From Coprobacillus sp. CAG:605 (lineage in GTDB: Bacteria > Bacillota_I > Bacilli_A > RF39 > UBA660), in contig HF998235.1 of assembly GCA_000433255.1 (NCBI GenBank), positions 13 to 64,012 of the forward strand: 64,000 nucleotides of DNA, in the 5' to 3' direction. The translations under genes and the position numbers were made by a program. The notes below the pieces were generated by a model that was not told the origin of the DNA, ran no database searches, and saw only the letters and a list, made by a program, of their open reading frames with translations. Below are positions 5,325 through 38,926 of the stretch, piece after piece. Positions within the stretch are counted from its first letter, which is position 1; every line of letters starts with the position of its first letter.

Positions 5325-6115
5325 TATGATTTCCATATTTCTTTAATCATCTCCTTATTATCTGTAATAATCCTATCTAAAAGCCCATAATATCCCAGTT
5401 GAATTGATAAATCAATCATAAAAGGTAAATCAAATCCCAATCTTCGTAATAATTTTTCTTCTTTTAAACATTCAATCGTCTTACCTTCCATAGCAATTTC
5501 TTTATTATAAAGCACTACTAAATAAGGAAAAAAAGTTACATAATCCATATCCGTTGTAATATTTATAATCGTTATCTTATTCTTCTTACAATAACTAATT
5601 ATTCTCTTAATCATATCCTCATTCATATCAATAAATAAATCATCAATAACTAAATAAACCGGATTTCGCACTAATTCTTTAATAATCTTAATATAATTTT
5701 TCCATTCAACATCAAAATTACATATTCTTTTTTCTAACTCATCATCTAATTTAAAATAATCAATTATCTTTTTAGTTCGAGCTTCCTCTTCTTCTAATTC
5801 CAAATTTAAGTCATTCATACTATCAAAAAGCTCATTAATAACTGTATTTTTATTAACGTATTTATCATGAAACACAACAGCGACATATCTCCTTAATAAA
5901 TATAAATTACTTCTAACTATTTCCACACCATTAATTTTTATTGAACCACGATATCTTATTCTACCAGCTAAAATACGCGCTAACGTCGTTTTCCCAGAAC
6001 CACTAGGGCCAATAATACTAACTCCAACCCCTTTAGGTATAGTTAAAGATAAGTTATGAAAAATTTCTTTATCTAAAGTTGTATAAGATATGTTGCTTAA
6101 GTTTAATTGTTCCAT
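5324..6115 (-). CDS. EcfA-like ABC ATPase with intact Walker A but degenerate signature and Walker B
   Basis: GPSGSGKTTLARILAG is a Walker A. There is no LSGGQ (NFDVEWKNY sits in its place) and Walker B reads LVIDDLF. The C-terminal LGFDLPFMIDLSIQL resembles EcfA tails. AGGTGAGG RBS lies before ATG 6115. Confidence 0.6.
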   Translation of the reverse strand: MEQLNLSNISYTTLDKEIFHNLSLTIPKGVGVSIIGPSGSGKTTLARILAGRIRYRGSIKINGVEIVRSNLYLLRRYVAVVFHDKYVNKNTVINELFDSMNDLNLELEEEEARTKKIIDYFKLDDELEKRICNFDVEWKNYIKIIKELVRNPVYLVIDDLFIDMNEDMIKRIISYCKKNKITIINITTDMDYVTFFPYLVVLYNKEIAMEGKTIECLKEEKLLRRLGFDLPFMIDLSIQLGYYGLLDRIITDNKEMIKEIWKS

Positions 6116-6166
6116 AATCCTCACCTTAAGTTAATATTATACATAAACTTGCCAAAAAAAGAAAGA

Positions 6167-6538
6167 TTAATTATCTTCCTTTATAACATTTTCCTCTGTA
6201 GAATCACTACTTGAACTACTTTTATCCTTATTTTCAACTCTTAGAATTAATTCTCCATCTTTAGTATACCCAAATTTTTCTCTCGCATATCTTGCCATAT
6301 AATCTGGATCTTGCAATTTAACAACTTCGCTTTCTAACTTTTTTTCTTCTAAAACTAAACTATCATATTTATTAGTAAGCTCGCCCTTTAGTCTTCTATT
6401 TTCAAAAATTTTTGTCCAATCATTAAACACACTATGAATAACCAAAACGATTAAAACAATTAAAATTACACTTAACCATTTCATTCTTCTTTTAGCTTTA
6501 TTAACTTTTTTCTTCTTAACTTGACCCTTATTCACCAT
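6167..6538 (-). CDS. divIC: Septum formation initiator DivIC/FtsB family
   Basis: N-terminal TM segment, a coiled coil, then DPDYMARYAREKFGYTKDGE. Follows yabP-yabQ as in B. subtilis. Confidence 0.8.
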   Translation of the reverse strand: MVNKGQVKKKKVNKAKRRMKWLSVILIVLIVLVIHSVFNDWTKIFENRRLKGELTNKYDSLVLEEKKLESEVVKLQDPDYMARYAREKFGYTKDGELILRVENKDKSSSSSDSTEENVIKEDN

Positions 6539-6605
6539 TTCATACCCTCTAGTATCAATAATTATACCACGAAACGTACCTATTTTCTAGAAGATAACTT
6601 TAATT

Positions 6606-6872
6606 TTACATTTTATTTGTAAACTTTCTTCCAACAAAAAAACCCAAAATAATAATAAACATAAAATATATGTGAAAATTACCATTATTAATAAAGAACA
6701 AAACATCAACATACATTATTACCATAATAAAAGTTGCCAAGAAATATATCAAAATCTTAGAAACCAAATAAGCTTTCTTTAAAAGTTTCCTATGAACTCT
6801 CATACAAAAATTAATAAGTATTCCATATAAGAATGAAATAAAAAAGCATATTAACTGAACTTCAATTTTCAT
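6606..6872 (-). CDS. yabQ: Spore cortex biosynthesis protein YabQ
   Basis: Small polytopic membrane protein directly after yabP with an overlapping stop/start. Call rests on synteny with B. subtilis yabP-yabQ-divIC. Confidence 0.65.
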   Translation of the reverse strand: MKIEVQLICFFISFLYGILINFCMRVHRKLLKKAYLVSKILIYFLATFIMVIMYVDVLFFINNGNFHIYFMFIIILGFFVGRKFTNKM

Positions 6873-8621: not shown

Positions 8622-9387
8622 AATTATATAAATCTATAAATTCAATCATACTAAATTCTTCCGCTCTCGAACTTAAATCATGACCATAATTTTTTAAAAC
8701 TATACTAACTTTTTCTAAATCATAACCTTTTAAATTATTGCGAATATTCTTTCTTTTATACAAAAAGCATTGTTTAACAAACTTAAAAAACTTTTCTTCA
8801 TTATTAACTTGATATTTATTATGTCTTACTAGCTTTATAACCGCACTATCAACATTAGGAACAGGATAAAAAGCATACCTTGATACATTAGTAAGAGTTG
8901 ATATATCATAAAAATAATTTAAATAAACACTCACACTACCATATTCTTGACTACCAGGTTTTGCACTAAATCTATCTGCTACTTCCTTCTGAACCATCAA
9001 AGTCATATCGACTTCATTTATATTGGAACTAATTATTTTCTCAATAATTGGTGTCGTTATATAATAAGGTATATTAGCAATTACATGAATTTTATCATAC
9101 TTAGAAAAATCATATTCCCTAAAATCCACTTGTAAAATATCTTGATACACAACTTTTAAATTAGAACAACTTATTTTATCTAAATATTCTTTAACTCTTA
9201 AGTCTATTTCAAATGCTAAAACATCACACCCCATATCAACAAGTTTTTTAGTTAAAGCTCCATGTCCAGGTCCAATTTCAATTATCAAATCATTATTTCC
9301 CACGGAAACACTTGCCACAATTTTATTAAGAACATTATTATCTTGTAAAAAATTTTGACCTAAATTCTTTTTATATTGAAAACCCAT
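8611..9387 (-). CDS. rsmA: 16S rRNA (adenine1518/1519-N6)-dimethyltransferase RsmA/KsgA
   Basis: KKNLGQNFL, EIGPGHGALT and ANIPYYITTPI motifs. Confidence 0.93.
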   Translation of the reverse strand: MGFQYKKNLGQNFLQDNNVLNKIVASVSVGNNDLIIEIGPGHGALTKKLVDMGCDVLAFEIDLRVKEYLDKISCSNLKVVYQDILQVDFREYDFSKYDKIHVIANIPYYITTPIIEKIISSNINEVDMTLMVQKEVADRFSAKPGSQEYGSVSVYLNYFYDISTLTNVSRYAFYPVPNVDSAVIKLVRHNKYQVNNEEKFFKFVKQCFLYKRKNIRNNLKGYDLEKVSIVLKNYGHDLSSRAEEFSMIEFIDLYNSLF

Positions 9388-10735: not shown

Positions 10736-10755
10736 ATTATCCTACTTTCAATTTT

Positions 10756-10769
10756 ATTTCCCAGGAAAT
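10756..10769. promoter_or_regulatory. Noc-binding-site-like palindrome, one mismatch (ATTTCCCAGGAAAT)
   Basis: 13/14 match to the B. subtilis NBS consensus ATTTCCCGGGAAAT. Intergenic between tatD and metG. Confidence 0.5.
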
Positions 10770-10806
10770 ATTTTGTCATACAAGCAAGAAAAATTTCACC
10801 ATAATT

Positions 10807-10820
10807 ATTTCCCGGGAAAT
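10807..10820. promoter_or_regulatory. Perfect Noc-binding-site palindrome ATTTCCCGGGAAAT
   Basis: 14/14 match to the NBS consensus, 2 nt from the metG stop and 37 bp from the previous site. Confidence 0.6.
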
Positions 10821-10822
10821 AA

Positions 10823-12352
10823 TTATTTTCTCTCGATTCTAGTAAATAAATGCTCAGGTGTTCCCAACTTAATTGAAGATTTTAATCCACCAAAAACTTT
10901 AGTACTTTCATAATCTCTTACATCAGTGTTTAATTGATTTAAAATCTTTTCACTAGTTTCTGGTAAAAATGGACTTAAATGAATAGCAATAATTCTAATA
11001 CTTTCTAACAAGTTATATAAAACAGTCCCAAGTCTAGCTTTCTTACTTTCATCTTTAGCCAAAATCCAAGGTGTTGTATCATCAATATACTTATTACACT
11101 TTCTAAGAACATCAAAAATTTCTTCTAAAGTCTCGCCGACTTTTAATTCGTTCATTTTCTCTTCTAACTTATTTGAAAGTCCAAGCACATTATTTATTAA
11201 ATCATTATCGATTTCTTCAGTACAATCTCCATTTTGAACAATTCCTTCAAAATACTTCATATTCATACTTATCGTACGATGTACCAAATTTCCTAAATTA
11301 TTAACCAAGTCCGCATTAATTCTATTAACTAAATTTTCTTCACTAAAAGTACCATCACTTCCAAATGGAACCTCTCTTAAAGCATAATATCTAACCGCAT
11401 CAACTCCATAATCACGAATATACTCTCTCGGATCTTTATAATTTCCTAAACTCTTACTAATCTTACCGCCATTGATAACTAACCAACCATGACCAAATAC
11501 TTGTTTAGGTAACTCCAAGTCTAAAGCCATTAACATTGCTGGCCAAATAATAGTATGAAATCTTACAATTTCCTTACCAACCAAATGCAAATCGCAAGGC
11601 CAATATTTTTTAAACTTCTCATCATTTTCAGTCATATAACCAAGCGAAGTAATATAGTTTGACAAAGCATCAACCCAAACATAAATAACATGCTTAGGGT
11701 CAAAAGTAACTGGAATACCCCAAGTAAATGAAGTTCTAGAAACACATAAATCATCTAATCCTGGTTTAATAAAGTTATTAATCATTTCATTCTTTCTTGA
11801 CTTTGGTAAGATAAAATCAGGATGTGACTCAATATACTCCACTAATCTATCTTGATATTTAGATAATCTAAAAAAGTATGCTTCCTCACTAACCTCTTTA
11901 ACTTCTCTCCCACAATCTGGACACATGCCATTAACTAACTGACTTTCAGTCCAAAATGATTCACAAGGAGTACAATATAATCCTTTATATTCTCCTTTAT
12001 AAATATCACCTTGGTCATACAACTTCTTAAATATCTTTTGTACTATTTCTTCATGTTTTTTATCGGTTGTTCTAATAAAATAATCATAACTAATATTTAA
12101 ACTTTTCCATAAATCTTTAGCGTTATTTACTATTTTATCTACATACTCTTTTGGCGTAACTCCCGCCTCACGAGCTTTATTTTCAATTTTTTGACCATGT
12201 TCATCAGTTCCCGTTTGAAAATAAACATCATATCCTAATAATCTCTTATATCTTGCAATCGAATCTGCAATAATTGTTGTATAACAATGTCCAATATGAA
12301 AATCTGCACTTGGATAATATATCGGTGTTGTTATATAAAATTTCTTTTCCAT
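10823..12352 (-). CDS. metG: Methionyl-tRNA synthetase
   Basis: HIGH motif (ADFHIGHCY), KMSKS motif (KISKSLGN) and a zinc knuckle (CTPCESF ... CPDCG). ATG 12352 is preceded by a GGAGGAG RBS. Confidence 0.95.
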   Translation of the reverse strand: MEKKFYITTPIYYPSADFHIGHCYTTIIADSIARYKRLLGYDVYFQTGTDEHGQKIENKAREAGVTPKEYVDKIVNNAKDLWKSLNISYDYFIRTTDKKHEEIVQKIFKKLYDQGDIYKGEYKGLYCTPCESFWTESQLVNGMCPDCGREVKEVSEEAYFFRLSKYQDRLVEYIESHPDFILPKSRKNEMINNFIKPGLDDLCVSRTSFTWGIPVTFDPKHVIYVWVDALSNYITSLGYMTENDEKFKKYWPCDLHLVGKEIVRFHTIIWPAMLMALDLELPKQVFGHGWLVINGGKISKSLGNYKDPREYIRDYGVDAVRYYALREVPFGSDGTFSEENLVNRINADLVNNLGNLVHRTISMNMKYFEGIVQNGDCTEEIDNDLINNVLGLSNKLEEKMNELKVGETLEEIFDVLRKCNKYIDDTTPWILAKDESKKARLGTVLYNLLESIRIIAIHLSPFLPETSEKILNQLNTDVRDYESTKVFGGLKSSIKLGTPEHLFTRIERK

Positions 12353-12374
12353 AACTATCTCCTCCATAGAAAAA

Positions 12375-12565
12375 AGCCATAACATAAGGACGAGAAAACC
12401 CGTGGTACCACCTTATTTTATGACTAATCATACACTTAAATATCTTAACGCGATTAACGATTTAGCTCCCAAATCCATACTCCCTATTCATTTTTATTTC
12501 TCTTCCACCATCAAGAAACTCTCTTTAAAAAACTCCTAGGTACCCATTTGTTCCTCACTAATTAA
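12375..12565 (-). promoter_or_regulatory. T-box leader (probable Met specifier AUG) controlling metG
   Basis: Minus strand contains the T-box sequence GGTGGTACCACGG, a terminator ending GGCTTTTTT just before the RBS, AGAGA and CGTTA boxes, and AAAATGAAT as a candidate specifier loop. Confidence 0.8.
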
Positions 12566-12581
12566 CCATAGTTTACCATTA

Positions 12582-13052
12582 TTAACATGAAATATCAAGT
12601 TTATTTGTAATCAAAATATTAAGTATTTGACCCACTATTTCATTACAACTACTATCACTAACTAAGATAATCCCTTCCACATTTGAATCAATTATCACTG
12701 GTCTTAAATCACAAGCACTACAAATCTTATCTTTTTCCCTCATTAAATCATATAGTGATAATCCAACCAATCTTTTAACATCTAAATCGGTAATCTCAGT
12801 ATTATTAAAAATAATTTTTTCCCTATTTGTCGCTAGTATTTTTACATGCATATTATCCACAAGCATTTTCAAAAGTCCAATCACATACTCATCATAATTC
12901 TTAATTGCTACCGCTTTAACTAACTTTATATAATTATCATCAATACTTATTTCTAAACTATCATCTTTCTTTATTGACAATCTCTTTCTTATATCTTTAG
13001 GGATTACAATACGTCCTAATTCATCTATTTTTTTAATCGAACCATTATTCAT
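12582..13052 (-). CDS. spoVT: AbrB-domain transcription regulator, SpoVT-like
   Basis: N-terminal KIDELGRIVIPKDIRKRLSIKKDDSLEI (SpoVT/AbrB swapped-hairpin) plus a C-terminal domain. Directly downstream of mfd as in B. subtilis. Confidence 0.65.
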   Translation of the reverse strand: MNNGSIKKIDELGRIVIPKDIRKRLSIKKDDSLEISIDDNYIKLVKAVAIKNYDEYVIGLLKMLVDNMHVKILATNREKIIFNNTEITDLDVKRLVGLSLYDLMREKDKICSACDLRPVIIDSNVEGIILVSDSSCNEIVGQILNILITNKLDISC

Positions 13053-13098
13053 TTCATAACCTCACTACCCTTATTTTATCCACAAGTATCTTTTTTAT

Positions 13099-13121
13099 AA
13101 CTAAAACAACAAAAAAGAGGC
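13099..13121 (-). terminator. Terminator after mfd
   Basis: Minus strand reads agaggc-tttg-gcctct followed by T6. Confidence 0.7.
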
Positions 13122-13130
13122 CAAAGCCTC

Positions 13131-16100
13131 TTAATTACTTAATTTATCCACTTCATCTTTTATTAAATTCAATAAATCTACCAAGTAATAGACAAAATGT
13201 TTATCTAAATTATTCACAGGTAAAGTAATATATACTTTATTTAATACTGAACGAAATTGAAACTTTCTTGAAATATTATAAGCTTGAATAAATAACTTAT
13301 CAAATTTTAAATTATGAACCAAAGTAGTTGGCAGTTCAATCTCCACTAAAGTACTATTCTGTACAACTTTTGTTATTCCTAGACTATTAGCTAGTTTTTC
13401 AAACCATTCTTCATACATATAAACTCTAATCTTTTCATCAATCTTACCAAATCTATCCTCAATTTCATGCTGAATGCTTTCTAATTTTTCATAACTATCA
13501 ATTTCATTAATCTTTTGATGAATTTCAATTTTTAAACTCTCATCACTTACATACTTATCACTAATATGAGTATCAACATTAATTAAAGCTTTATTACTAG
13601 TATCTTCTTTAGGTATTTCTTCCCCATGAATTTTTTTAATCTCTTCATCAACCATTTTCATATACAAATCTAGGCCAACCGCTGAAACAAATCCCGCTTG
13701 ATCACTACCCAAAATATCCCCAGCACCACGTAGCGACAAATCACGCATAGCAATACGATAACCACTACCTAACTCAGTAAACTCTTTAATAGCTTGTAAT
13801 CTCTTTATCGCAATATCATTTAACATCTTATTTTTATCATACATTAAATAAGCATAAGCAATTTTATTACTACGCCCAACACGACCACGAATTTGATACA
13901 ACTGACTTAAACCAAATCTGTCAGCATCAAATATTATCAATGTATTAGTATTAGGAATATCTATTCCAGTTTCAATAATCGTCGTACATAATAAAATATC
14001 ATACTTATAATTAATAAAATCATCCATTACATCTTCAATTTCACTTTTATTCATTCGACCATGAGCCGTTACAATCCTAGCTTCCGGAACTAACTTTTGC
14101 AATTCACTTCGTTTATTTTCTAAGCCATCAACATGATTATATAAAATAAATATTTGTCCTTTTCGCGCTAATTCCTTATATATAGCATCTTTTACAACCA
14201 TATCAGATTCCGCCATGACATAGGTTTGAACAGGATATCTATTAACCGGTGCCGTATCTATAATGGATAAATCTCTTAACCCTGACATCGCCATTTTCAA
14301 AGTTCTTGGAATTGGTGTTGCAGATAATGTTAAAACATTAACATCATTCTTATATTGTTTAATTCTTTCTTTATGTGTTACTCCAAAACGTTGTTCTTCA
14401 TCAACTATTAATAACCCTAAATTCTTATATTCAATGTCCTTACTAAGCAAACGATGCGTACCAAATACTATATCTATAGTTCCATTTTTTAAGCCTTCTA
14501 AAATTCTTTCCGTTTCTTTAGGAGTAGTAAATCTATTTAATAACGCTATTTCTACCGGAAAATTTTTAAATCTTTCCAAAGCATTTTCATATTGTTGCTT
14601 TGAAAGTATTGTTGTAGGACATAAATAAGATACTTGCATATTATTAACAACTGTTTTAAACATTGCTCTAAATGCTACTTCAGTCTTTCCAAAACCTACA
14701 TCTCCACATAATAATCTATCCATAGGAACATCTTTTTCTAAATCCTGATTAATATCTTTAAAAGCTTTTTCTTGGTCAGCCGTTGGAACATACTTAAAAT
14801 CAGCATCAAATAAATCTTCTATTGGATCACTTTTAAAAGCTGGCCCTTTTATCTTAGCACGCTCCGCATAAAGCTTAATAAGTTCCATAGAAATATCATG
14901 AACTTTTTTCTGCATTGCTCGTTTAGTCTTTTCCCAAGAGGTACTATTTAGCTTATTAATTTTAGGAACATCCCCATCTTTAGAAGAATACTTAAATATA
15001 TTACTAATCTTTTCTACAGGAACATAAACTTTATCATCACCATCATACTTTATTAGTAAGTAATCTTTTTTTATACCATGATTATCTAACGTAACAACAC
15101 CACTATAAATACCTATTCCATGAGCTTCATGAACGACATAATCACCAACTTCCAACTGGTCAAAATTATGTATTCTTTTACCAATTCGATAAGAATTTTT
15201 ATATTTAATTTCTTTATGATTTATTTTTTCAATATCAAATTCCGCTATTACACAGTAATTAAATATTTCAAAACCATTATCTATTTTCTTTGAAATAATA
15301 TTTATTTTATTAGTAATAATTTCATTTCCAGTGGTAATTCTTGCCGCGGGAAATATTTCTATTATATCATCAATTTCATTTTTATTAGATAAATAAAATA
15401 TAATAGTATTATTACTTTTTAATTTATTTTTTACATAATTTTCTAATAAATCAAAGTTAGAATTAAAATTTTCTATTTCTTTTGTTTGATAATGAAATTT
15501 ATTATCATTTAAAACCTCTAAACTATCCAAATAAATCCAGTTCGAAATATTTAACTCTTCCATTTCAAACATATATTTTTTATTCTCATTTAGCGATTGA
15601 TTATATTCCATTATCTCATCACAAAGTTTAGCATACCCTGCATCAATTTGCGATTTTTCAATCATAAATACAAAAGGCTTTCCTAAATAATCCAAGATTG
15701 AACTCTTATTTGCCGTTTCAATCTCGATATAAGGTAATATCGTAATCTTATCTATCTCTTTAATAGATAACTGATTATTCTCATCAAATACTCTTACTGA
15801 ATCAATTTCGTCACCAAAAAATTCAATTCTAACTGGATGCTCTTGCTCGATTATAAATAAATCAATTATAAAACCACGAACCGCATATTCACCAGTCGCT
15901 GCAACCATAGATTCCTTAGTATATCCAAACTCATCTAAAATTTGAATAAACTTATCTCTATTTATTTGCATCCCCTTCTTTAACTCAAATTGTGTCTTAT
16001 TAGCATATTTATAGTCAGGAAGATATCTTAAAAGTCCCATTAAATTCGTAACGACAATATGTTTTTTATTATCCTTTAATTGATTTAAAGTTTCCAAACG

Positions 16101-16358
16101 TTTAATTTTCAAATCAGGCGAAATCGCCACCGCTACTGAAGAAATAAAATCATCCATTGGAAATATTAAAACATCCTTATTTAAAGTACTTAGTAAATCA
16201 TAATATTGATTAGCTTCATATAAACTATTAGCTAAAACTAAAACGTTCTCATCATGAATTTCAAAATACTGATTAACGTAAAAAACGTTTAACTCTTTCG
16301 TTAAACCAATTACTTCACTATTATTAACATAATTATATAACTCATTTAAATAATTCAT
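13131..16358 (-). CDS. mfd: Transcription-repair coupling factor Mfd
   Basis: 1075 aa with a CarD-like domain (VGDYVVHEAHGIG) and helicase motifs (GDVGFGKTEVA, DEEQRFG, TATPIPRTL, QLYQIRGRVGR). Confidence 0.96.
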   Translation of the reverse strand: MNYLNELYNYVNNSEVIGLTKELNVFYVNQYFEIHDENVLVLANSLYEANQYYDLLSTLNKDVLIFPMDDFISSVAVAISPDLKIKRLETLNQLKDNKKHIVVTNLMGLLRYLPDYKYANKTQFELKKGMQINRDKFIQILDEFGYTKESMVAATGEYAVRGFIIDLFIIEQEHPVRIEFFGDEIDSVRVFDENNQLSIKEIDKITILPYIEIETANKSSILDYLGKPFVFMIEKSQIDAGYAKLCDEIMEYNQSLNENKKYMFEMEELNISNWIYLDSLEVLNDNKFHYQTKEIENFNSNFDLLENYVKNKLKSNNTIIFYLSNKNEIDDIIEIFPAARITTGNEIITNKINIISKKIDNGFEIFNYCVIAEFDIEKINHKEIKYKNSYRIGKRIHNFDQLEVGDYVVHEAHGIGIYSGVVTLDNHGIKKDYLLIKYDGDDKVYVPVEKISNIFKYSSKDGDVPKINKLNSTSWEKTKRAMQKKVHDISMELIKLYAERAKIKGPAFKSDPIEDLFDADFKYVPTADQEKAFKDINQDLEKDVPMDRLLCGDVGFGKTEVAFRAMFKTVVNNMQVSYLCPTTILSKQQYENALERFKNFPVEIALLNRFTTPKETERILEGLKNGTIDIVFGTHRLLSKDIEYKNLGLLIVDEEQRFGVTHKERIKQYKNDVNVLTLSATPIPRTLKMAMSGLRDLSIIDTAPVNRYPVQTYVMAESDMVVKDAIYKELARKGQIFILYNHVDGLENKRSELQKLVPEARIVTAHGRMNKSEIEDVMDDFINYKYDILLCTTIIETGIDIPNTNTLIIFDADRFGLSQLYQIRGRVGRSNKIAYAYLMYDKNKMLNDIAIKRLQAIKEFTELGSGYRIAMRDLSLRGAGDILGSDQAGFVSAVGLDLYMKMVDEEIKKIHGEEIPKEDTSNKALINVDTHISDKYVSDESLKIEIHQKINEIDSYEKLESIQHEIEDRFGKIDEKIRVYMYEEWFEKLANSLGITKVVQNSTLVEIELPTTLVHNLKFDKLFIQAYNISRKFQFRSVLNKVYITLPVNNLDKHFVYYLVDLLNLIKDEVDKLSN

Positions 16359-16367
16359 ACCAATTAC

Positions 16368-16919
16368 CTATTTCTTATTATACTTTTGCATACAATACTC
16401 TATATCATGATTAGCAAAATCTACTATGATGTCTTTAAATATAGGAGCCATTTCATTAAATTGTTCTAAATTTTCTTTACTAATTCTTCCTAAAACATAA
16501 TCTTTAGTATCCATACTTCTATCATGCGCAATACCAATTTTCAACCGAGGAACCATATCAGTTCCTAAAGAAGCAATTATTGACTTCATTCCATTATGTC
16601 CGCCCGCACTACTTTTATATTTTAACCGATATTTTAGAAATGATAAGTCTAAATCATCTTGAATAATCAAAATATCTTTATTTTCAATTTTATAATAATT
16701 AGCAAATTTGGCAACTGCATCTCCTGAAAGATTAACGTACGTTAAAGGCTTTATAAAAATAACTTTTTCACCATTAATATTTTCTTCACAACATAAAGCA
16801 TTGAACTTTTTGACAAATTTTTTATTTCCCGGGAAATAATCTAACACCATAAACCCAATATTATGTCTTGTACATTCATACTCTTTACCATAATTTCCAA
16901 TACCAACAATTAACTTCAT
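16368..16919 (-). CDS. pth: Peptidyl-tRNA hydrolase
   Basis: MKLIVGIGNYGKEYECTRHNIGF and GGHNGMKSI motifs. Confidence 0.93.
   Translation of the reverse strand: MKLIVGIGNYGKEYECTRHNIGFMVLDYFPGNKKFVKKFNALCCEENINGEKVIFIKPLTYVNLSGDAVAKFANYYKIENKDILIIQDDLDLSFLKYRLKYKSSAGGHNGMKSIIASLGTDMVPRLKIGIAHDRSMDTKDYVLGRISKENLEQFNEMAPIFKDIIVDFANHDIEYCMQKYNKK
16824..16837. promoter_or_regulatory. Perfect Noc-binding-site palindrome inside pth
   Basis: ATTTCCCGGGAAAT. It is translated as YFPGN in pth. Confidence 0.6.
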
Positions 16920-16932
16920 TTTATATCACATC

Positions 16933-17637
16933 CTAATCAAAAATTCTTTTATAACTCCTATGCTCTAATACATTTACTGGCGGATTAACAATCAAGCCAT
17001 CAGAACCATTTTTTGTCGCTTTAATAAGAACCATTATAGCACTCTTTTGATATCCTGCATAAACAAATTGTAACTTTTTAACACTAAATTTATATTTAGT
17101 TAAAATCCCTATAAGTTCCATTAATCTTTCTGGACGATGCACTAAATACAAAGGTGCTTTATTTTTTAAAATATATTTAGCCGTCATTACAATTTCTTCT
17201 AAATTAGTTTTTATTTCATGACGAGCTATAGCTAAACTTTCTTCTGTATTAACATATGACCCTTTATTTAACTTAAAATAAGGCGGATTACAAGTAACCG
17301 CATCAACAGATTCGGGTAAAATATATTCCAAGCTCTCATTAAGATTAGCATTAATAATTTTAACTTGTTTTTCTAAATTATTAAGTATAACCGAATTATA
17401 TGCTAATTGAAAAACATTTTTTTGTAATTCAAAACCAATTATTTTACTATTAACTCTAGTTGAAAGTATCAAAGGCACAGCCCCATTACCACAACAAAAA
17501 TCAACTATTGTATTTAATCCGGCCTTATTTTCTACAAATTCGGCAAGTAATATTGAGTCTAAAGAAAATTTAAATAATTTCTCATCTTGATATATTTCTA
17601 ATCCATAATCAAATAAATCATTCTTTACTACTTTCAT
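16933..17637 (-). CDS. Class I SAM-dependent N6-adenine methyltransferase, TrmN6/YabB-like
   Basis: SAM-binding DFCCGNGAVP and the motif IV CNPPYF. Confidence 0.7.
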   Translation of the reverse strand: MKVVKNDLFDYGLEIYQDEKLFKFSLDSILLAEFVENKAGLNTIVDFCCGNGAVPLILSTRVNSKIIGFELQKNVFQLAYNSVILNNLEKQVKIINANLNESLEYILPESVDAVTCNPPYFKLNKGSYVNTEESLAIARHEIKTNLEEIVMTAKYILKNKAPLYLVHRPERLMELIGILTKYKFSVKKLQFVYAGYQKSAIMVLIKATKNGSDGLIVNPPVNVLEHRSYKRIFD

Positions 17638-18418
17638 TATTATCTAGTTCAATCTCCTTAACTTCATTTCCAATTAAAACTTTATATTTTCTATTTAATA
17701 TATCAACAGATATAACTTTGCCTTCACCTTGCTCTAAAGTAATCTTCTTACCAACAGTAGGCATCCCGACACGACAACAACTATATTGTTCATCTTCGTA
17801 AGTTAAACAACATAATAATCTACCACAACAACCATTAATTTTAGAAGGATTCAAAGCAATATTTTGATTCTTAGCCATATTCATACTTATAGAATCAATA
17901 TGATTTAAAAAACCAGCACAACACAGTCTTCTCCCACATACACCATATCCATCAATACTTTTAGCTTTATCACGAGCCCCAATTTGTCTTAATTCAATTC
18001 TTGTTTTAAATTTACCAGCTATTCTTTTCGCAAGTTCACGAAAATCAATACGTTCATCAGCCAAGAAATTTAATAATAATTGTTTTCTATCAAAGTTAAA
18101 GCTCGAATCCATAAAACGCATATTCAAGTTTAATTCATTAGCAACTTCTTTAGCATAATTCATAGCTTCTTCTTGTTCCTTCAATAAACTTAAATGTTTC
18201 TTATAATCATTTTTGGTTGCAATACGAATTATTGGACTAATTTCCTCAATCGAAGTTTTTAAATCTGTTTCATTAACTTTCATTACTACTTTACCAAATT
18301 GTTCTCCTCGTTCTGTTCGAACAATAACCGTTACATTAATTGGACATTCTAATTTTTCTGCATTAAAATAATAAATTTTTCCATTTGGTTTAAATTCTAC
18401 ACCATAAATATTACGCAT
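17618..18418 (-). CDS. ricT: PSP1-domain protein RicT/YaaT (stage 0 sporulation)
   Basis: PSP1-like N-terminus and the Cys-rich C-terminus CGRRLCCAGFL ... CCGRLLCCLTYE. Follows holB as in B. subtilis. Confidence 0.85.
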   Translation of the reverse strand: MRNIYGVEFKPNGKIYYFNAEKLECPINVTVIVRTERGEQFGKVVMKVNETDLKTSIEEISPIIRIATKNDYKKHLSLLKEQEEAMNYAKEVANELNLNMRFMDSSFNFDRKQLLLNFLADERIDFRELAKRIAGKFKTRIELRQIGARDKAKSIDGYGVCGRRLCCAGFLNHIDSISMNMAKNQNIALNPSKINGCCGRLLCCLTYEDEQYSCCRVGMPTVGKKITLEQGEGKVISVDILNRKYKVLIGNEVKEIELDNNESSKE

Positions 18419-19244
18419 TAGCTCTCCTCATTTCTATGACAAACTGATCTAATAATAGCTCTAAACTTACATTTGCTTGATTTAATGTTATAGTTTTTTC
18501 TATAATTGCAATTTGCTTTTTTAATTGTTCAAGAGAAATTCCTGATAAAACGTCATTTTTTTTATTTCCCGGGAAATATTTTTCACTAATTGCACTCATA
18601 TACATATCAAAAATAACAGTTAACAAAGAATTAATTTCATTTCTCGTACCAAAAGACGGTAAAATAAATTCTTTATTTACTATCAAATCACAATTTTCCA
18701 AAATTCTTCTTACATATTCATTTGCATATTCAATTATTTTCTCATCAACTACACTCTTAGTCGCATAATCGATTTTCATAATTTGACAACGACTCTTTAT
18801 CGTATCAATTACTCTCTCTTTATTAGTAGTTATAAAGAACCCTAAAATATTATCTTCCGGTTCTTCTAAAAATTTTAACATACAGTTTGAAGCAGAATCA
18901 TTCATCATATCAGCATCTTTTATTATATATATATTATACCTTGAATACACAGGTTTAGTACTAAACTTTTCTTGCAACTCATTAAGTTGCTGTTTTTTTA
19001 TACTCATACCATCTGGCTCAACAATTATAATACTAGGTAAATTCAATAAATCAATTAACTTACATAAATTGCATTGTTCAGTACAATCACTCTTATACTT
19101 ATCAGGACAATTAACAATCTTTAATAGTTGTTTTATATCATTCAAACATAATTCATAATTATTTGTTTCAATTAAAAAAGCATGAGAAAGCTTATTATCC
19201 TCATATTTCTTTTTCAATTCATTAAATTTATCTGCTTCAAACAT
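18411..19244 (-). CDS. holB: DNA polymerase III delta-prime subunit HolB
   Basis: HAFLIE start, LKFLEEPE and IKSRCQ motifs. ATG 19244 is preceded by GGTGG. Confidence 0.85.
   Translation of the reverse strand: MFEADKFNELKKKYEDNKLSHAFLIETNNYELCLNDIKQLLKIVNCPDKYKSDCTEQCNLCKLIDLLNLPSIIIVEPDGMSIKKQQLNELQEKFSTKPVYSRYNIYIIKDADMMNDSASNCMLKFLEEPEDNILGFFITTNKERVIDTIKSRCQIMKIDYATKSVVDEKIIEYANEYVRRILENCDLIVNKEFILPSFGTRNEINSLLTVIFDMYMSAISEKYFPGNKKNDVLSGISLEQLKKQIAIIEKTITLNQANVSLELLLDQFVIEMRRANA
18564..18577. promoter_or_regulatory. Perfect Noc-binding-site palindrome inside holB
   Basis: ATTTCCCGGGAAAT. It is translated as YFPGN in holB. Confidence 0.6.
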
Positions 19245-19260
19245 AACTACCACCAATCAA

Positions 19261-19398
19261 TCATATTATCAATAATTTTATAATAACTAGTGCTAATACA
19301 CCAAAACCACCTAAAAAATAAGTAATTATTATATTTATAATATTAATAGGAATAATGACGTTAACATACTTTAACATAACATTTAAACCATATAACAT
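19261..19398 (-). CDS. Small hydrophobic BofA-like protein (absent from the ORF track)
   Basis: Manual translation gives MLYGLNVMLKYVNVIIPINIINIIITYFLGGFGVLALVIIKLLII. The IPIN-x8-FLGxxG-x-ALV pattern matches the C-terminal half of B. subtilis BofA as I recall it. It occupies the recR-bofA position. The frame stays open upstream to 19452 without a canonical start. Confidence 0.4.
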   Translation of the reverse strand: MLYGLNVMLKYVNVIIPINIINIIITYFLGGFGVLALVIIKLLII

Positions 19399-19489
19399 TA
19401 AAAAGGAAAAAACTAATTTTCTTATAACAAAATATACTTTTTTTATAGTTAATCACCAACCAATATAATTATATTAGGCTTACTATAAT

Positions 19490-20089
19490 TTATGATATAT
19501 CTTTTCTATCATTTAAGGCATTAAGAAGTGTAATCTCATCCAAATAATCAATATCAACACCCATTGGAATACCATAAGACAAACGAGATATTTTAACCCC
19601 TTTATCTTCTAATATCTTCTTTATATATAAAGTAGTCGTTTCTCCTTCAATAGACGGCTTCAAAGCTATAATAACTTCAGGATTTTCCAAAGTTTTTACT
19701 CTATCAATTAGTGAAGATAAATTAATATCTTCAGGCCCTCTATCATCAATTGGTGAAATAAGCCCATCTAAAACATGATACACCCCATTATACTTACCAG
19801 CCTTTTCAAAAGCAAAAACGCCTTTAAAGTCCTCTAAAACACATATTACGTTATGATTTCTCGAAATATCTCGGCAAACATAACATACATCTTCATCTGT
19901 TAAACCACCACAAATACTACATCTCTTTAATTTCTTTTTGGCCGTATTTAAGGCTAAAGAAAAATCAGCAACTTCCTCTAAAGACATATCCAAAATTGCC
20001 AGTGCCATACGTTCAGCACTCTTTTCGCCAATACCAGGCAATTTCTTAAAGTATTCTATTAATTCTAATAAATTAGCAGGATATATCAT
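19490..20089 (-). CDS. recR: Recombination protein RecR
   Basis: LPGIGEKSAERMA (HhH), a C4 zinc finger (CSICGG ... CYVC) and a Toprim domain. Confidence 0.95.
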   Translation of the reverse strand: MIYPANLLELIEYFKKLPGIGEKSAERMALAILDMSLEEVADFSLALNTAKKKLKRCSICGGLTDEDVCYVCRDISRNHNVICVLEDFKGVFAFEKAGKYNGVYHVLDGLISPIDDRGPEDINLSSLIDRVKTLENPEVIIALKPSIEGETTTLYIKKILEDKGVKISRLSYGIPMGVDIDYLDEITLLNALNDRKDIS

Positions 20090-20385
20090 TAAAATAATCC
20101 GTTAAGAGCACTTCCATATTGACCCATAGCTTTTTCCATAGCTTGATCAACATTCTTAATAGCATCATTTGTGGCAATCATAATCATATCTTGAAGTACT
20201 TCAATATCATCCTTAGTTAAATCTTCATTTTTTATTACTACTTCAGTTACTTCTTTATTACCATTCATTGTAACTTCAACTAATTCAGACTTTCCTGTAA
20301 ATAATTGTTTACCCACTTCCTCTTTTTTCTTCATTATATCTCTTTGCATTCTTTGTGCTTGAGCCATTAAATTTTGCATATTCAT
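20089..20385 (-). CDS. ybaB: Nucleoid-associated protein YbaB/EbfC
   Basis: 98 aa, MQNLMAQAQRMQ ..., located between dnaX and recR. Confidence 0.9.
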   Translation of the reverse strand: MNMQNLMAQAQRMQRDIMKKKEEVGKQLFTGKSELVEVTMNGNKEVTEVVIKNEDLTKDDIEVLQDMIMIATNDAIKNVDQAMEKAMGQYGSALNGLF

Positions 20386-20402
20386 AAATTTATTCTCCTC
20401 TT

Positions 20403-22052
20403 CTATTTTGTTTCATAATTATTTCCAAAAATTTCATTAGCTAGCTTCTCCAACTCACTAGTATTTTCTTCAATAATTATGGAATCATCCATCATAGTAT
20501 ATTTATAACCACTTTTTAAGTTAGTAATATACTTATTACGTGCCTCTTCCCATACTTTTGGTGAAATAGACACCAATTTATATTCTCTACCAAAGAATAT
20601 TTTAAAATCTTTTTCTACTGATTCAATATTCTCATTAATTAAATCATTAGTATTATTTATCTTATTAACCAATACAGCATAATTATTAGATGCTGCAACA
20701 AGCTCAGTATCTACTATATATGAAAGTAACAACTTATTCGCATTACTTTCATAAATAACAAAATCGTCCCATTTTTCTTTTAGCTCTAACAAATACTTTT
20801 TTTGAGCTCCTACAAAAGTATTATTTATTCTGGCATCCACATTAAAGTGAGCCTTTTTTTCATTAACTATTGGAGCCTCATTATTTATTTCTGGTTCTTT
20901 ACTTCCTTTTATTTCCTGGGAAATATTTTCTTTAGTTGGTCTTTCTTCGACTTTTTGCTCTATTTTCAAAGTAGAACCACTCTTTTTTTCCTCAACTGGA
21001 GCTTTAACATCCTTATTTGAAATTTTATTTCCCGGGAAATATTTTAAAATTACAATTTCTAAAAAATTATATGGAGCGATATTACTTTTAATTTCTTGAA
21101 GTACTCTATTTAATTCAAAAACCATACTATAAAGCATATCAAAATCAAGAATACCATTATAATTATCTAATTTTATATCTATTAAGATTGATTTTATTCT
21201 ATCTATCAGCTTTTCAATTAATATTCTTACATCGATACCATTATTTTTAAATTCTTTTAATAGTTCTAAAGTGCCTTTAACATCCCCAGAAGTAAATACA
21301 TCCATAAATTCTTTTACTTTTTTATTTGATATACTTCCAAAATTGCTTGTAACATCATCTACATCTATTTTAGTATTACGTGAAGAAATTTGGTCTAAAA
21401 TACTTAATGCATCACGCATACCACCATTACTCATATAAGCTATTTCTTTTAAAGCGGCATCCGTTATATCAATTTTTTCTTCGTTACAAACATAATTTAA
21501 ACGATTAACTATATCATCAACTACAATTGGTTTAAAATCAAATCTTTGACAACGCGATAAAACTGTAATTGGAACACTTTGAATATCAGTTGTTGCTAAT
21601 ATAAATACTACATTAGATGGTGGTTCTTCCAATGTTAATAATAAAGCATTAAAAGCACTAGTAGATAGCATATGAAATTCATCAACTATATATACTTTAT
21701 ACTTTGAATTTGCTGGAGCTAAACGAACATTGTTAATTATTTCTCTTATTTCATCTACTCCATTATTAGAAGCAGCATCTATCTCAATTATATCTGGATT
21801 TGTTCCAAAACTTTTACACATTTCACACTCATTACAAGGATTTCCATCTTTTGGATTTAAGCAATTTAAAGCCTTAGCAAATATTTTAGCAGAACTTGTT
21901 TTACCGGTACCACGTGGGCCAGTAAAAATATAAGCATGCGAAATATGTTCATTTTTTATAGCATTTTTTAATAATGTTTTTGTATATTCTTGACCTACTA
22001 AAGAATCAAAATTCTGTGGTCTATATTTTCGATAAAGAACTTTATATTCCAT
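20403..22052 (-). CDS. dnaX: DNA polymerase III gamma/tau subunit DnaX
   Basis: YRKYRPQNF, GPRGTGKTS, zinc module CNECEMC, DEFHMLS and SRCQRFDF motifs. Confidence 0.96.
   Translation of the reverse strand: MEYKVLYRKYRPQNFDSLVGQEYTKTLLKNAIKNEHISHAYIFTGPRGTGKTSSAKIFAKALNCLNPKDGNPCNECEMCKSFGTNPDIIEIDAASNNGVDEIREIINNVRLAPANSKYKVYIVDEFHMLSTSAFNALLLTLEEPPSNVVFILATTDIQSVPITVLSRCQRFDFKPIVVDDIVNRLNYVCNEEKIDITDAALKEIAYMSNGGMRDALSILDQISSRNTKIDVDDVTSNFGSISNKKVKEFMDVFTSGDVKGTLELLKEFKNNGIDVRILIEKLIDRIKSILIDIKLDNYNGILDFDMLYSMVFELNRVLQEIKSNIAPYNFLEIVILKYFPGNKISNKDVKAPVEEKKSGSTLKIEQKVEERPTKENISQEIKGSKEPEINNEAPIVNEKKAHFNVDARINNTFVGAQKKYLLELKEKWDDFVIYESNANKLLLSYIVDTELVAASNNYAVLVNKINNTNDLINENIESVEKDFKIFFGREYKLVSISPKVWEEARNKYITNLKSGYKYTMMDDSIIIEENTSELEKLANEIFGNNYETK
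20911..20924. promoter_or_regulatory. Noc-binding-site-like palindrome, one mismatch, inside dnaX
   Basis: ATTTCCTGGGAAAT. It has the same TTTT / TATTTT flanks as the perfect sites. Confidence 0.45.
21027..21040. promoter_or_regulatory. Perfect Noc-binding-site palindrome inside dnaX
   Basis: ATTTCCCGGGAAAT. It is translated as YFPGN in the dnaX linker. Confidence 0.6.
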
Positions 22053-22850: not shown

Positions 22851-23576
22851 ATGTTTCACGTGAAACATAGTAATTATCTTTTTAAAACGATATATCAGTC
22901 CATTTAAGTTAAAATTATATTTATGATTATCTTTTATTTAATGTATTATTCTCAATGTTTCACGTGAAACATTGGACTTTTGTATCTTTAACTTAAAACA
23001 TGGTCAAATAACTACCTAAATATTTATAAAATAAAGTAAAAACCCTATCTCATTGACTTTAATTCCATAAAATTAAAACAATTATCAACTATGTTTCACG
23101 TGAAACATTAGAAAAAGTAAAATAAATTTAGTAATGAAACTCATATAAAATATAGAAATATTAAAAATAATTATTTATCACGTATAAAAAATAAAACTTC
23201 ATTAGTGTATTTTAAAAATTTGAAAAAAGTTTAATTGAAATTTTAAATTAATTAACAATGTTTCACGTGAAACATATATACTTTGATTAATTTTTTTAAA
23301 AGATAAATTAAAAATTATATAAAATAGATATGTAGATTAATTATTGCTGCTGTTTACTTATAAACACCCAATGTTTCACGTGAAACATTGAGTTGACTTT
23401 TAAAATTATTGCTGGACTTATTATAATTTTAATATTTTTTATTTATTAAATAATTAATGCTTATTAAAATAAATATTTATCCACTATGTTTCACGTGAAA
23501 CATATAAAAAAATACATATCTATTTCTAAATATGTATTTCTATTTAAATAAGTTAACAATGTTTCACGTGAAACAT
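22851..23576. repeat. Array of seven identical 18-bp palindromes ATGTTTCACGTGAAACAT (each a perfect parS core)
   Basis: Copies at 22851-22868, 22955-22972, 23091-23108, 23258-23275, 23371-23388, 23486-23503 and 23559-23576. Spacers are 86, 118, 149, 95, 97 and 55 bp and are unrelated to each other. No ORF of 60 aa or more lies in 22622-23588. Confidence 0.9.
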
Positions 23577-29151: not shown

Positions 29152-29637
29152 TTATACCACATTATCTTTCTTTTTGGCTGGCTTTTTTGCTTTTTTGACG
29201 ATTTTTCTTTCATTTAAAACATAATTTAATCTAGTTGCTCGCAAAATCAAGTTTGTAAAAACATAATATGAAATATTTACTGAAATTTTTGACATATTTT
29301 TAAATATTATTTCTGTATTTTTATCAATTTTTCGATAATCTTTAACGTTGTTTAAAGAAATCCAAGAACAATTCTTACTCCGAGGTGAAGATGTTGGAAA
29401 AAATATAATGTCTTTACTTTCTTCAATAATAATTGGTGATTTAGTAGAATACCCCGTTAATATCCGAGTCCCCCTTCTACGCCCTTCAAACGTACTACCA
29501 AAATATTCACAACTTTTCTTAATAATATTAAGTGTATTATCTTTTATTAAATAAGATTTATTCCCCTCATATATTTTAGTATTTGGATAATTGCTTATAA
29601 TTGCCAATGTATCTTCATTAATCTCATAATTTTTCAT
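29152..29637 (-). CDS. ComK-family transcription factor homologue
   Basis: SCEYFGSTFEGRRRGT ... KSPIIIEES ... IIFFPTSSPRSKNCSWISL aligns by eye with B. subtilis ComK (SCRFFGSSYAGRKAGT ... KPPIMVDPS ... IFLFPTLSSTRPQCGWIS). Confidence 0.7.
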   Translation of the reverse strand: MKNYEINEDTLAIISNYPNTKIYEGNKSYLIKDNTLNIIKKSCEYFGSTFEGRRRGTRILTGYSTKSPIIIEESKDIIFFPTSSPRSKNCSWISLNNVKDYRKIDKNTEIIFKNMSKISVNISYYVFTNLILRATRLNYVLNERKIVKKAKKPAKKKDNVV

Positions 29638-30894: not shown

Positions 30895-31039
30895 ATTTTC
30901 TCCTTCTTTTATATATATTCATAATCATAATACTGTGGATAATGTGGATAACTTTTTGCTTTTACCCATATTTATGCCAAATTTTGGGCATTTTGCCCTG
31001 TGGATAACTAACTGAGTTATCCACAATCCATTCACATAG
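30895..31039. promoter_or_regulatory. oriC part 2 (dnaA-dnaN spacer): four consensus DnaA boxes plus an AT-rich candidate unwinding region
   Basis: TGTGGATAA at 30934-30942 and 30943-30951 (abutting) and at 30999-31007, and TTATCCACA at 31018-31026. An almost pure A/T stretch at 30897-30933 abuts dnaN. Confidence 0.8.
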
Positions 31040-32410
31040 TTAGATTTTTGCTTTAATTTCATTGACAATTTCTTGTAATTTTTTATTGTCTTTAAGGTCT
31101 TCTGTGATTTTATCAACAGCATGAATTACGGTAGAATGATCTCTTCCCCCAAATTCTAAGCCAATTCTTGGAAATGATTCATCAGTAAGCATTCTAGCTA
31201 AGTACATTGCAAGCATTCTAGGATATGCAATGTTCTTGGACTTTTTCTTTCCTTTTAGAACATCAATTGTGAATCCATAATAGTCTGCAACTGCCTTTTG
31301 AACCATAGAAATATCGTTATTTGAATAAATATTTTTACTTATATAATCCCCTAAAGCTTCTTGGGCAAAATCTAAATCTATCTTAGTTGGGGTATAAACA
31401 GCAACATAAGCCGCTAATCTATTAATTGCCCCCTCAATTTCCCTTACATCCGTATCGCATGAGTTCGCAATGTACATAATAACATCATCACTTATCATTT
31501 TTGCAATACTAAGATACTTAATTTTATCTTTAATTATTCTTACTCTTAGGTCTAAATCCGGTGGATAAATATCTACGGGAAGTCCCCATGCAAACCTGCT
31601 TCTAAGACGTTCTTCTAATAATTTTAAGTCTTCTGGCGATCTATCAGATGTAATAATAATTTGCTTATTGTGACTGTGTAGTTCATTAAATGTATGAAAG
31701 AACCCTTGCTGTGTTTTTTCAGCTCCTACTAAAAACTGGATATCATCTACCAACAAAACATCTACATCTCGATATTTATTTTTAAAGTAATCAGCTCTTT
31801 CAAATGACGATTCTGCCCCATTAGTACTGGCAATACTTGTATAATCATCCTTAAAATTCTCACTAGTTGTGTATAAAACTCTTAAATTACTATTTTCTAC
31901 TATGTAATTTCCTATTGCATGCATTAAGTGGGTCTTTCCTAGCCCACTTTTACCATAAATAAACAAAGGATTATATATTTTTCCTGGTTGTTGTGCTACA
32001 GCGATTGCTGCAGTTTTGGCAAATTTGTTGGTATCTCCAGTAACATAGTTATCAAAAGTAAACTCTTTCTTTAAATTTGTAATAAACTCTGTATTATTAT
32101 CTTTTTTAACTTCCAAAGTCCTGTTGTTGATAATTTCCAAGTTATCCACAGTCTCATCTTCTAGAACAAAAGAAATATCATAAGTAACGTTAGTTAATTC
32201 AGTCAAAGCGTCTTCCAAAAGCTGATACCAGCTAGTTTCGAGCACATTTTTATGCACTGCCATTGGTACTTGAATGACGATTTTGTTCTTTAAAGTATCT
32301 ATTTCATGTAATTTTAATGGTTTAAACCATGTATTAAATGTGATTGGATTTATTTTTTGTTGTAGCAACGATAGAAATTTGCTCCATAAATCCTGATTGT
32401 CCAAAATCAT
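31040..32410 (-). CDS. dnaA: Chromosomal replication initiator DnaA
   Basis: NPLFIYGKSGLGKTHL, LLVDDIQFL and the C-terminal HTH region GGRDHSTVIHA. Start chosen at ATG 32410 (MILDNQDLW). The RBS spacing is poor, so GTG 32434 remains possible. Confidence 0.96.
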   Translation of the reverse strand: MILDNQDLWSKFLSLLQQKINPITFNTWFKPLKLHEIDTLKNKIVIQVPMAVHKNVLETSWYQLLEDALTELTNVTYDISFVLEDETVDNLEIINNRTLEVKKDNNTEFITNLKKEFTFDNYVTGDTNKFAKTAAIAVAQQPGKIYNPLFIYGKSGLGKTHLMHAIGNYIVENSNLRVLYTTSENFKDDYTSIASTNGAESSFERADYFKNKYRDVDVLLVDDIQFLVGAEKTQQGFFHTFNELHSHNKQIIITSDRSPEDLKLLEERLRSRFAWGLPVDIYPPDLDLRVRIIKDKIKYLSIAKMISDDVIMYIANSCDTDVREIEGAINRLAAYVAVYTPTKIDLDFAQEALGDYISKNIYSNNDISMVQKAVADYYGFTIDVLKGKKKSKNIAYPRMLAMYLARMLTDESFPRIGLEFGGRDHSTVIHAVDKITEDLKDNKKLQEIVNEIKAKI

Positions 32411-32478
32411 CACCCCACTAACCAAATCTATCACAAGTATTGTACTCTATTTTTTAAATTTTGGGAAGTTTTTTTTAG

Positions 32479-32778
32479 TTATTCACAAGAAATTCACAGG
32501 TTATCAACATTTTATCAACATTTTTTTATCGGTGTATGCTGGTCTCTTATTAGTTATCAACATTATCAACAATTTATTTATCAACAATGTGGATAAATAT
32601 TCAAAAGTTATCCACAACTCCTGTGGATAACTGATATTTTATATTTTTTTTGGCTGAAATACGCCAAAAAAATGCTTGTGAATAATGTGGATAACTATAA
32701 AAAATGGCACTTTTTGACATAAAAGTTGTGCACAACTAAAAAGTTATCCACAGGCGATTTTGATTTTCTTGTTGATAA
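32479..32778. promoter_or_regulatory. oriC part 1 (upstream of dnaA): at least 13 DnaA boxes
   Basis: Consensus boxes (TTATCCACA / TGTGGATAA) at 32588, 32608, 32622, 32686 and 32744. TTATCAACA variants at 32501, 32512, 32554, 32563, 32578 and 32770 (complement). TTATTCACA variants at 32479 and 32677 (complement). Confidence 0.85.
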
Positions 32779-38217: not shown

Positions 38218-38926
38218 AGAAGAATTTCTAATTGCTGTATCAAATCTAGGTTTAAATCTTACCATGCAACAACAAAAAGACTTAGAAACATACCAGTCTT
38301 TCCTAGAAGAATATAATAAAACAACCAATCTAACAACAATTGTTAATGAATTCGAAGTATACTTAAAACATTTTTATGATTCCTTAACAATTATTAAAGA
38401 AATTGATTTAACAAAAGTTGATACTCTCTTAGACATTGGAACAGGTGCGGGATTTCCCGGTATGGTATTAAAAATCTGTTATCCTAATCTTAATGTTACT
38501 TTGCTTGATTCCAACAACAAAAAACTAATCTTTTTAGATAATTTAAAAAATAAATTAAATATAGATGTAACTCTTGTTCATAGTCGTGCCGAAGAATTTA
38601 TTACTGACAATCGTGAAAAATTTGATGTTGTTGTAACTCGTGCTGTTGCATCCCTTCCTATCCTTTGTGAACTTGCAATTCCTTACTTAAAAGTAAACGG
38701 CTATTTTATTGCTATGAAATCAAATGCCTTAGAAGAAATCAATGCCAGTACTAATATCTTATCCAAATTAGATAGTAAAATAATTAATATCAATGAATTT
38801 GAATTACCTCATGAACATTCCAAAAGAACATTAATAAAAATAGAAAAATTAAAACCAACTAATCATCAATATCCAAGGCAATACAATCAAATAAAAAAAG
38901 AAGTAAGTAATCTCTTAACAAAATAG
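38210..38926 (+). CDS. rsmG: 16S rRNA (guanine527-N7)-methyltransferase RsmG
   Basis: DIGTGAGFPG SAM motif and TRAVA. Follows mnmG. Confidence 0.93.
   Translation: MNKEEFLIAVSNLGLNLTMQQQKDLETYQSFLEEYNKTTNLTTIVNEFEVYLKHFYDSLTIIKEIDLTKVDTLLDIGTGAGFPGMVLKICYPNLNVTLLDSNNKKLIFLDNLKNKLNIDVTLVHSRAEEFITDNREKFDVVVTRAVASLPILCELAIPYLKVNGYFIAMKSNALEEINASTNILSKLDSKIININEFELPHEHSKRTLIKIEKLKPTNHQYPRQYNQIKKEVSNLLTK

Follow-up and report, generated by a model that had tools for sequence, protein, structure and literature searches.

Clustered Noc-binding-site palindromes beside a parS array at the replication origin of Coprobacillus sp. CAG:605, with a Noc-type protein as their predicted reader

A 64-kb stretch (29% G+C) of the genome of Coprobacillus sp. 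CAG:605, a member of the order Erysipelotrichales that is common in human gut metagenomes, was analyzed and is referred to below as the window (contig HF998235.1, positions 13 to 64,012). It contained the replication origin (oriC), an array of perfect parS sites, six copies of a palindrome matching the Noc-binding site (NBS) of Bacillus subtilis, and one ParB-family gene whose product was the predicted reader of these palindromes. For this species the representative genome is a metagenome assembly in fragments, with a contig of 51 kb. The principal features of the window were as follows, with SRP standing for signal recognition particle.

10755..10770: NBS, one mismatch (TATTTCCCAGGAAATA), between metG and tatD, 20 bp upstream of the tatD start
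10806..10821: NBS, perfect, in the metG-tatD spacer, 51 bp from the copy at 10755
16823..16838: NBS, perfect, within pth, codons 27-31, YFPGN
18563..18578: NBS, perfect, within holB, codons 222-226, YFPGN
20910..20925: NBS with one mismatch, in the dnaX linker region, second frame, NISQEI
21026..21041: NBS, perfect, within dnaX, codons 337-341, YFPGN
22852..23575: parS array, seven perfect 16-bp copies of TGTTTCACGTGAAACA, in the non-coding DNA that separates gyrA from the SRP RNA gene (ffs)
30934..32752: two-part oriC, with DnaA-box clusters flanking dnaA, placed by DnaA boxes and GC skew
31040-32434, minus strand: dnaA
39117..40499, plus strand: the only ParB-family gene of the window, after rsmG, encoding a 460-aa Noc-type protein, the predicted NBS reader

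Scanning of both strands showed perfect copies of the 14-mer ATTTCCCGGGAAAT at 10807, 16824, 18564, and 21027, and copies with one central mismatch at 10756 (CCCAGG) and 20911 (CCTGGG); at up to two mismatches, no match beyond these six was found on either strand of the window. In shuffled versions of the window, the expected number of matches was 0.00 for perfect copies and 0.18 at up to two mismatches, and none of the 100 shuffles reached six. Allowing three mismatches added a single site (47572) against a chance expectation of 3.2; therefore, no weak sites were present outside the cluster. Within the cluster the spacing of the sites was 0.05-6 kb, and the probability of six sites placed uniformly in the 64 kb falling within a stretch of at most 10.3 kb was 5e-4. 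A chance origin of the palindromes was rejected by the shuffles and by this clustering value. The two copies between metG and tatD filled the whole 87-bp spacer. To the right of oriC, half-sites only were found (38452, 41887, 47572, 51997, and 56302).

All six copies had T at the left edge and A at the right edge, so the unit was determined as the 16-bp palindrome TATTTCCCGGGAAATA. The 3' flanks that departed from the common pattern were AATTA (10807) and AATCT (16824). The window contained four CCCGGG hexamers, all of them within copies of the palindrome. The published DNA used to crystallize B. subtilis Noc (GGATATTTCCCGGGAAATATCC) includes the identical 16-mer, and by sequence the six palindromes are matches to the NBS, a cis-element of an already known kind. 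The preliminary description of this region had reported four perfect and two one-mismatch copies at these positions, an expectation far below one copy by chance, a motif equal to the NBS consensus of B. subtilis, and half-sites only on the right of oriC, all of which was borne out. Its account of the flanks stood in part: A lay directly 3' of all six copies as described, TTTT preceded five of the six copies and not six, and ATTTT followed four of the six and not five.

Perfect DnaA boxes were located on both sides of dnaA, five at 32588-32744 and four at 30934-31017. The NBS cluster lay 11.4-21.7 kb from the dnaA start. Left of the origin, every gene was directed away from oriC, in the order dnaA, dnaN, comK, recF, gyrB, gyrA, a 0.9-kb spacer, the SRP RNA, tadA, dnaX, ybaB, recR, holB, ricT, a methyltransferase gene, pth, mfd, a spoVT-like gene, metG, tatD, ksgA, and yabG. 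The parS array in the 0.9-kb spacer was 724 bp long, with copies 73-167 bp apart, and its seven perfect copies compared with 0.32 expected by chance. The distance from the array to the nearest NBS was 1.8 kb.

The same region was compared in eight related loci (L127-L134), comprising seven relatives with HolB identities of 92, 56, 51, 48, 46, 48, and 43% and a second strain. Gene order was kept across the eight loci. The copies of the palindrome recurred at corresponding places in dnaX, holB, pth, and upstream of tatD. Both another strain and a sister species had a perfect version of the copy at 10755 that is imperfect in the window (L127 18488, L128 18473). An NBS was present upstream of tatD in five loci, and was kept in L131, L132, and L134, including where the neighbor gene upstream was a different one. 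The pth site was present in four loci (L127-L129 and L131) and degraded in L130, and the holB site was present in the four closest loci (L127-L130). A perfect NBS in the dnaX linker was found in seven of the eight loci; in L127-L131 it occupied the YFPGN place, and in L133-L134 it was read in the other frame (NISREI) about 20-40 residues downstream, where the linker alignment is uncertain. In L132, the dnaX copy had two mismatches and was located farther downstream at 8637. The gyrA-ffs spacer carried eight parS copies in other strains and 2-8 in every relative.

In divergent relatives, the 16-bp core was 94-100% identical vs. 42-72% in the ungapped flanks; for the dnaX site at 21026, the core was 100% identical and the flanks 46%. 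In DnaX, HolB, and Pth, the element was read as TAT TTC CCG GGA AAT, giving YFPGN in a variable part of the protein each time, and the second frame gave ISREI (dnaX of two relatives) or ISQEI (the window copy at 20911). Protein constraint cannot account for a single DNA word that appears in spacers as well as in two frames and three unrelated proteins, and coding constraint was rejected for this reason. These comparisons indicate that the sites are selected at the DNA level.

A separate observation on these sites was made in two relatives, in which the dnaX and holB copies shared a 35-41-nt unit, TAAATTATTTCCCGGGAAATAATTYTGTGGATAAA (L129 8226-8266 and 10660-10700; L130 8183-8217 and 10653-10687). 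Within this unit, the NBS was followed after 5 nt by a perfect DnaA box, TGTGGATAA. Its variable base differed between the two species and was the same within each genome, which suggests gene conversion. The shared unit was not seen in the window species.

A search with a HolB profile gave 80 further loci from low-GC relatives (29-53% HolB identity), bringing the total to 88 related loci. These contained 113 NBS at up to one mismatch, 87 of them perfect. An NBS lay within 300 bp of a parS in 16 of the loci, and 24 NBS lay within 100 bp of a parS. In the gyrA-tadA spacer of L207, the order over 0.8 kb was parS, NBS, parS, NBS, parS, NBS, parS, NBS, parS, and this array (5932-6713) contained a duplicated unit of about 390 bp with two parS and two NBS. 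Similar alternating arrays were found in four other loci (L202 5700-6536, L144 5443-6540, L139 882-1577, and L164 30-215), and the starts of parS and NBS in such arrays were as near as 21 bp. The window species had an array of parS only, with the NBS in adjacent genes. Across these loci, the pairing of NBS with parS at the origin is a trait of the clade. No description of mixed parS/NBS arrays or of their pairing at the origin was found in the literature searched.

The ParB-family gene at 39117 directly followed rsmG (38210-38926), and a noc gene after rsmG (gidB) belongs to the ancestral origin cluster of Firmicutes (PMC8136486). The genes soj and spo0J were absent from their usual place after noc. 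The product matched the Pfam families ParB_N and HTH_ParB and contained the GERRY motif for cytidine triphosphate (CTP). Its recognition region was GISQSAIANKLRLLNL...SERHARALL, and its specificity residues were Q173, K179, N184, and R201 in the numbering of Jalal et al. (2020). According to that study, adenine 1 of the NBS is recognized by Q173 and cytosine 6 by R201, a single permissive lysine at 179 or 184 is sufficient for NBS specificity together with Q173 and R201, and R173 and G201 are invariant in extant ParB. The type of the protein was scored as the NCBI Noc model minus the generic ParB model over the same approximately 200 residues, with the following results.

Window protein: +85 bits
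B. subtilis Noc: +93 bits
Geobacillus Noc: +107 bits
B. subtilis Spo0J: +23 bits
H. pylori ParB: +8 bits

By this score the window protein is classed as Noc-type rather than ParB-type. With this score and its NBS-type specificity residues, it is therefore predicted to read the NBS and not parS.

The homologues of the window protein were 420-516 aa long, with residues 1-200 near-invariant and with Q173, K179, N184, and R201 in all. Only 16 residues preceded the PNRFQPR motif, a stop codon was located 9 nt upstream of the ATG, B. subtilis Noc could be aligned only from its residue 28, and all 13 of the 13 family members shared the same start position. The start, the upstream stop codon, and the alignment together showed that the N-terminal amphipathic helix was absent. 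A short form of the protein (P0097, P0107) was rejected, as both were frameshifted fragments. The sequence was variable past residue 205, where a disordered linker of about 200 aa followed; AlphaFold2 modeled residues from about 236 to 401 as disordered and, after the linker, predicted with confidence a small C-terminal domain made up of one helix and two strands. The linker carried the conserved motifs NKFFN.LE..PAN and NPNN(K/R)FF (residues about 284-296 and 372-382), which were similar to SFSRFFGLG, the core of the membrane helix in B. subtilis Noc. VNKFFNTLE was the sole linker segment with a hydrophobic moment matching that of the B. subtilis Noc helix SFSRFFGLGEK. It could be hypothesized to be a relocated membrane anchor or docking motif, and is put forward as a hypothesis because the linker was disordered in the AlphaFold2 model.

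The window protein, having Q173 and R201 and not R173 and G201, is predicted not to be the reader of the adjacent parS array. Searches by tblastn, with the Noc-like core and the Spo0J core of B. subtilis as queries, yielded no second ParB-family gene from the window, nor from any locus out to 10 kb from holB. The genes parA and parB were absent from the origin cluster, and the window encoded neither a ParA nor a ParB fit to read parS. Extensions beyond the window edges, obtained via exact-protein matches (about 7 kb on the left and about 10 kb on the right), contained neither ParB nor parS. The reader of the parS array is predicted to be encoded outside the window.

Some further features of the region were recorded. 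The comK-family gene (29152-29637) lay between dnaN and recF in the origin cluster, and this was so in all relatives. Within the NBS cluster, at a distance of 19 kb from oriC, a small group of DnaA boxes was found at 12853-13210 near the spoVT-like gene and the end of mfd; the 12-14 kb bin held two perfect boxes and three with one mismatch. A phage-type integrase gene (8-1048) adjoined secA at the window's left edge; a different integrase was present at the same place in another strain (L137 13570-14544), so this place may be an insertion hotspot.

Published maps of Noc sites were available for two species. In B. subtilis, there are about 70 NBS per 4.2 Mb (PMC4331003). The Noc table from chromatin immunoprecipitation sequencing (ChIP-seq) in Staphylococcus aureus lists 41 peaks and 39 motifs, none perfect: eight motifs carry a single mismatch, 21 carry two, and the other 10 carry three or four. 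In this map, at most two peaks fell within 10.3 kb, and the nearest motif-bearing peaks were 29 and 67 kb from the origin; the protein covers 8-10 kb around each peak. Both maps are sparser and less perfect, and the window cluster is therefore an outlier in density and quality.

The six palindromes are very probably genuine NBS and the predicted loading sites of the Noc-type, CTP-dependent ParB-family protein encoded at 39117-40499. The interpretation of the preliminary description, a dense NBS patch, is supported by these data. As it had stated, the patch was 11-22 kb from dnaA and adjoined the parS array, a Noc-type gene was present in the same window, and the sites of B. subtilis were much sparser; oriC also lay where it had been placed there. 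We infer binding, clamp loading, and spreading by the window protein as follows. A Noc-type CTP clamp would load at the six sites and the clamps would spread; because S. aureus Noc covers 8-10 kb per site and the sites here are 0.05-6 kb apart, the stretches covered from the six would join up as a single unbroken Noc domain, about 15-20 kb long. This domain would occupy the dnaA-gyrA-dnaX flank of oriC, beside a ParB domain nucleated at the parS array. Because the N-terminal membrane helix is absent, any connection with the membrane or a partner would need to arise from the linker motifs (NKFFN.LE, NPNNKFF) or the C-terminal domain.

Several observations weigh against this reading. The N-terminal amphipathic membrane helix (residues 1-10 to 15) was not present in the window protein, so the membrane-tethering step of Noc cannot be assumed; this helix is needed for Noc function, and Adams et al. 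(2015) reported it in every Noc homologue examined. Three of the four Noc specificity residues were present, with K184 replaced by N, and N184 occurred throughout the family; the variant QKNR was not listed in the examined supplements of Jalal et al. (2020). The NCBI Noc model (TIGR04285) gave 282.2 bits, below its curated cut-off of 315, and the match stopped at model position 203 of 255. In the corresponding segment the relatives had 1-4 sites, which makes a count of six particular to Coprobacillus sp. CAG:605. About 81 kb around oriC of one genome was inspected, and other clusters or a genome-wide scatter may exist.

The extent of this inspection and the lower counts in relatives would also fit a chance local concentration of sites within a genome-wide scatter like that of B. 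subtilis, with no role at the origin. This explanation is unlikely, given the probability of 5e-4 for the observed span and given that the rest of the window (54 kb), where even weak sites were missing, and the 17 kb of extensions yielded no NBS. A scatter would also not account for the same places being kept in distant relatives, for NBS gathering beside and inside the parS array in those relatives, or for a density beyond the two peaks per 10.3 kb reached at most in the S. aureus map. The palindromes might instead be operators, and the ParB-family protein a KorB-like transcriptional regulator or silencer of nearby genes, tatD for example, with no part in division or segregation; two sites fill the spacer upstream of tatD at a conserved position, the window protein is named "predicted transcriptional regulator" in the database, and KorB-type ParB clamps silence genes (PMC11790492). 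We consider this very improbable, because four of the six sites lie deep in the coding sequences of unrelated housekeeping genes, the protein core is of the Noc type, and many sites of the relatives lie in the non-coding parS array.

There is hardly any likelihood that the motif is a restriction-modification target, the site of an unrelated protein, or a conserved peptide. CCCGGG is a known restriction site (SmaI/XmaI), and the in-gene copies encode YFPGN; however, the conserved unit is a 16-bp palindrome and not the hexamer, it encloses every CCCGGG of the window, and a restriction-site origin was rejected on this ground. Genomes also avoid restriction targets rather than keep them at matching places, and a peptide would not explain the element in a second frame, between genes, and in variable protein parts.

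On the preferred reading of genuine NBS loaded by the Noc-type protein, the function of the cluster can be considered from its layout. Few, perfect, clustered, and adjacent to parS, the sites resemble an origin-organizing, centromere-like element more than scattered, degenerate nucleoid-occlusion sites. Because of this centromere-like layout and a reader without the helix, organizing or anchoring of the origin region, or coordination with ParB, is favored over genome-wide nucleoid occlusion; classical occlusion with further scattered sites elsewhere in the genome is possible. More tentatively, and with considerable doubt, a clade of low-GC gut Firmicutes may hold a helix-less, Noc-derived clamp that is loaded beside ParB at a composite origin centromere. 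It would be either an undescribed organizing or anchoring module acting via the linker motifs or a surviving intermediate from ParB to Noc, in which case the NBS would have come from duplicated parS units.

Noc is known from two model species, in which the sites are scattered and mostly imperfect and the N-terminal helix ties the chromosome to the membrane. In contrast, the same DNA site is found here in a centromere-like layout with a reader lacking the helix. The features that set the arrangement apart are the dense, perfect, and conserved cluster on the origin flank, the helix-less Noc-type reader with a long linker, and the clade-wide association of NBS with parS. If the reading is true, the NBS-specific branch of ParB proteins does something other than classical nucleoid occlusion in widespread gut bacteria. 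The close pairing of NBS and parS also offers a concrete system in which to study the divergence of a ParB and its site after duplication, and the sharing of a single piece of DNA by two related sliding clamps.

Compared with known systems, the arrangement is close to Noc and the NBS of B. subtilis and S. aureus, with which it shares the 16-bp palindrome, origin-proximal sites, the gene after rsmG (gidB), and a ParB-family reader with the GERRY CTP motif and Q173, K179, and R201. It differs in having six sites per 10.3 kb vs. about one per 60 kb in B. subtilis and one per 34 kb in S. aureus, and in a reader with N184 that lacks the N-terminal amphipathic helix, scores below the NCBI Noc cut-off, and carries about 200 aa of disordered linker in which NKFF motifs are conserved. 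It resembles the ParB-parS centromere in having a few perfect palindromes grouped no more than about 25 kb from oriC and a reader of the same protein family that is presumably a CTP-dependent sliding clamp; however, each half-site of the NBS departs from that of parS at two positions, Q173 and R201 replace R173 and G201 in the reader, and no ParA gene is adjacent. RacA-ram of B. subtilis and RicO-ricS of S. aureus are alike in having a small set of origin-confined sites and a possible protein link to the envelope, but their folds are unrelated to that of the window protein, for which anchoring is a hypothesis.

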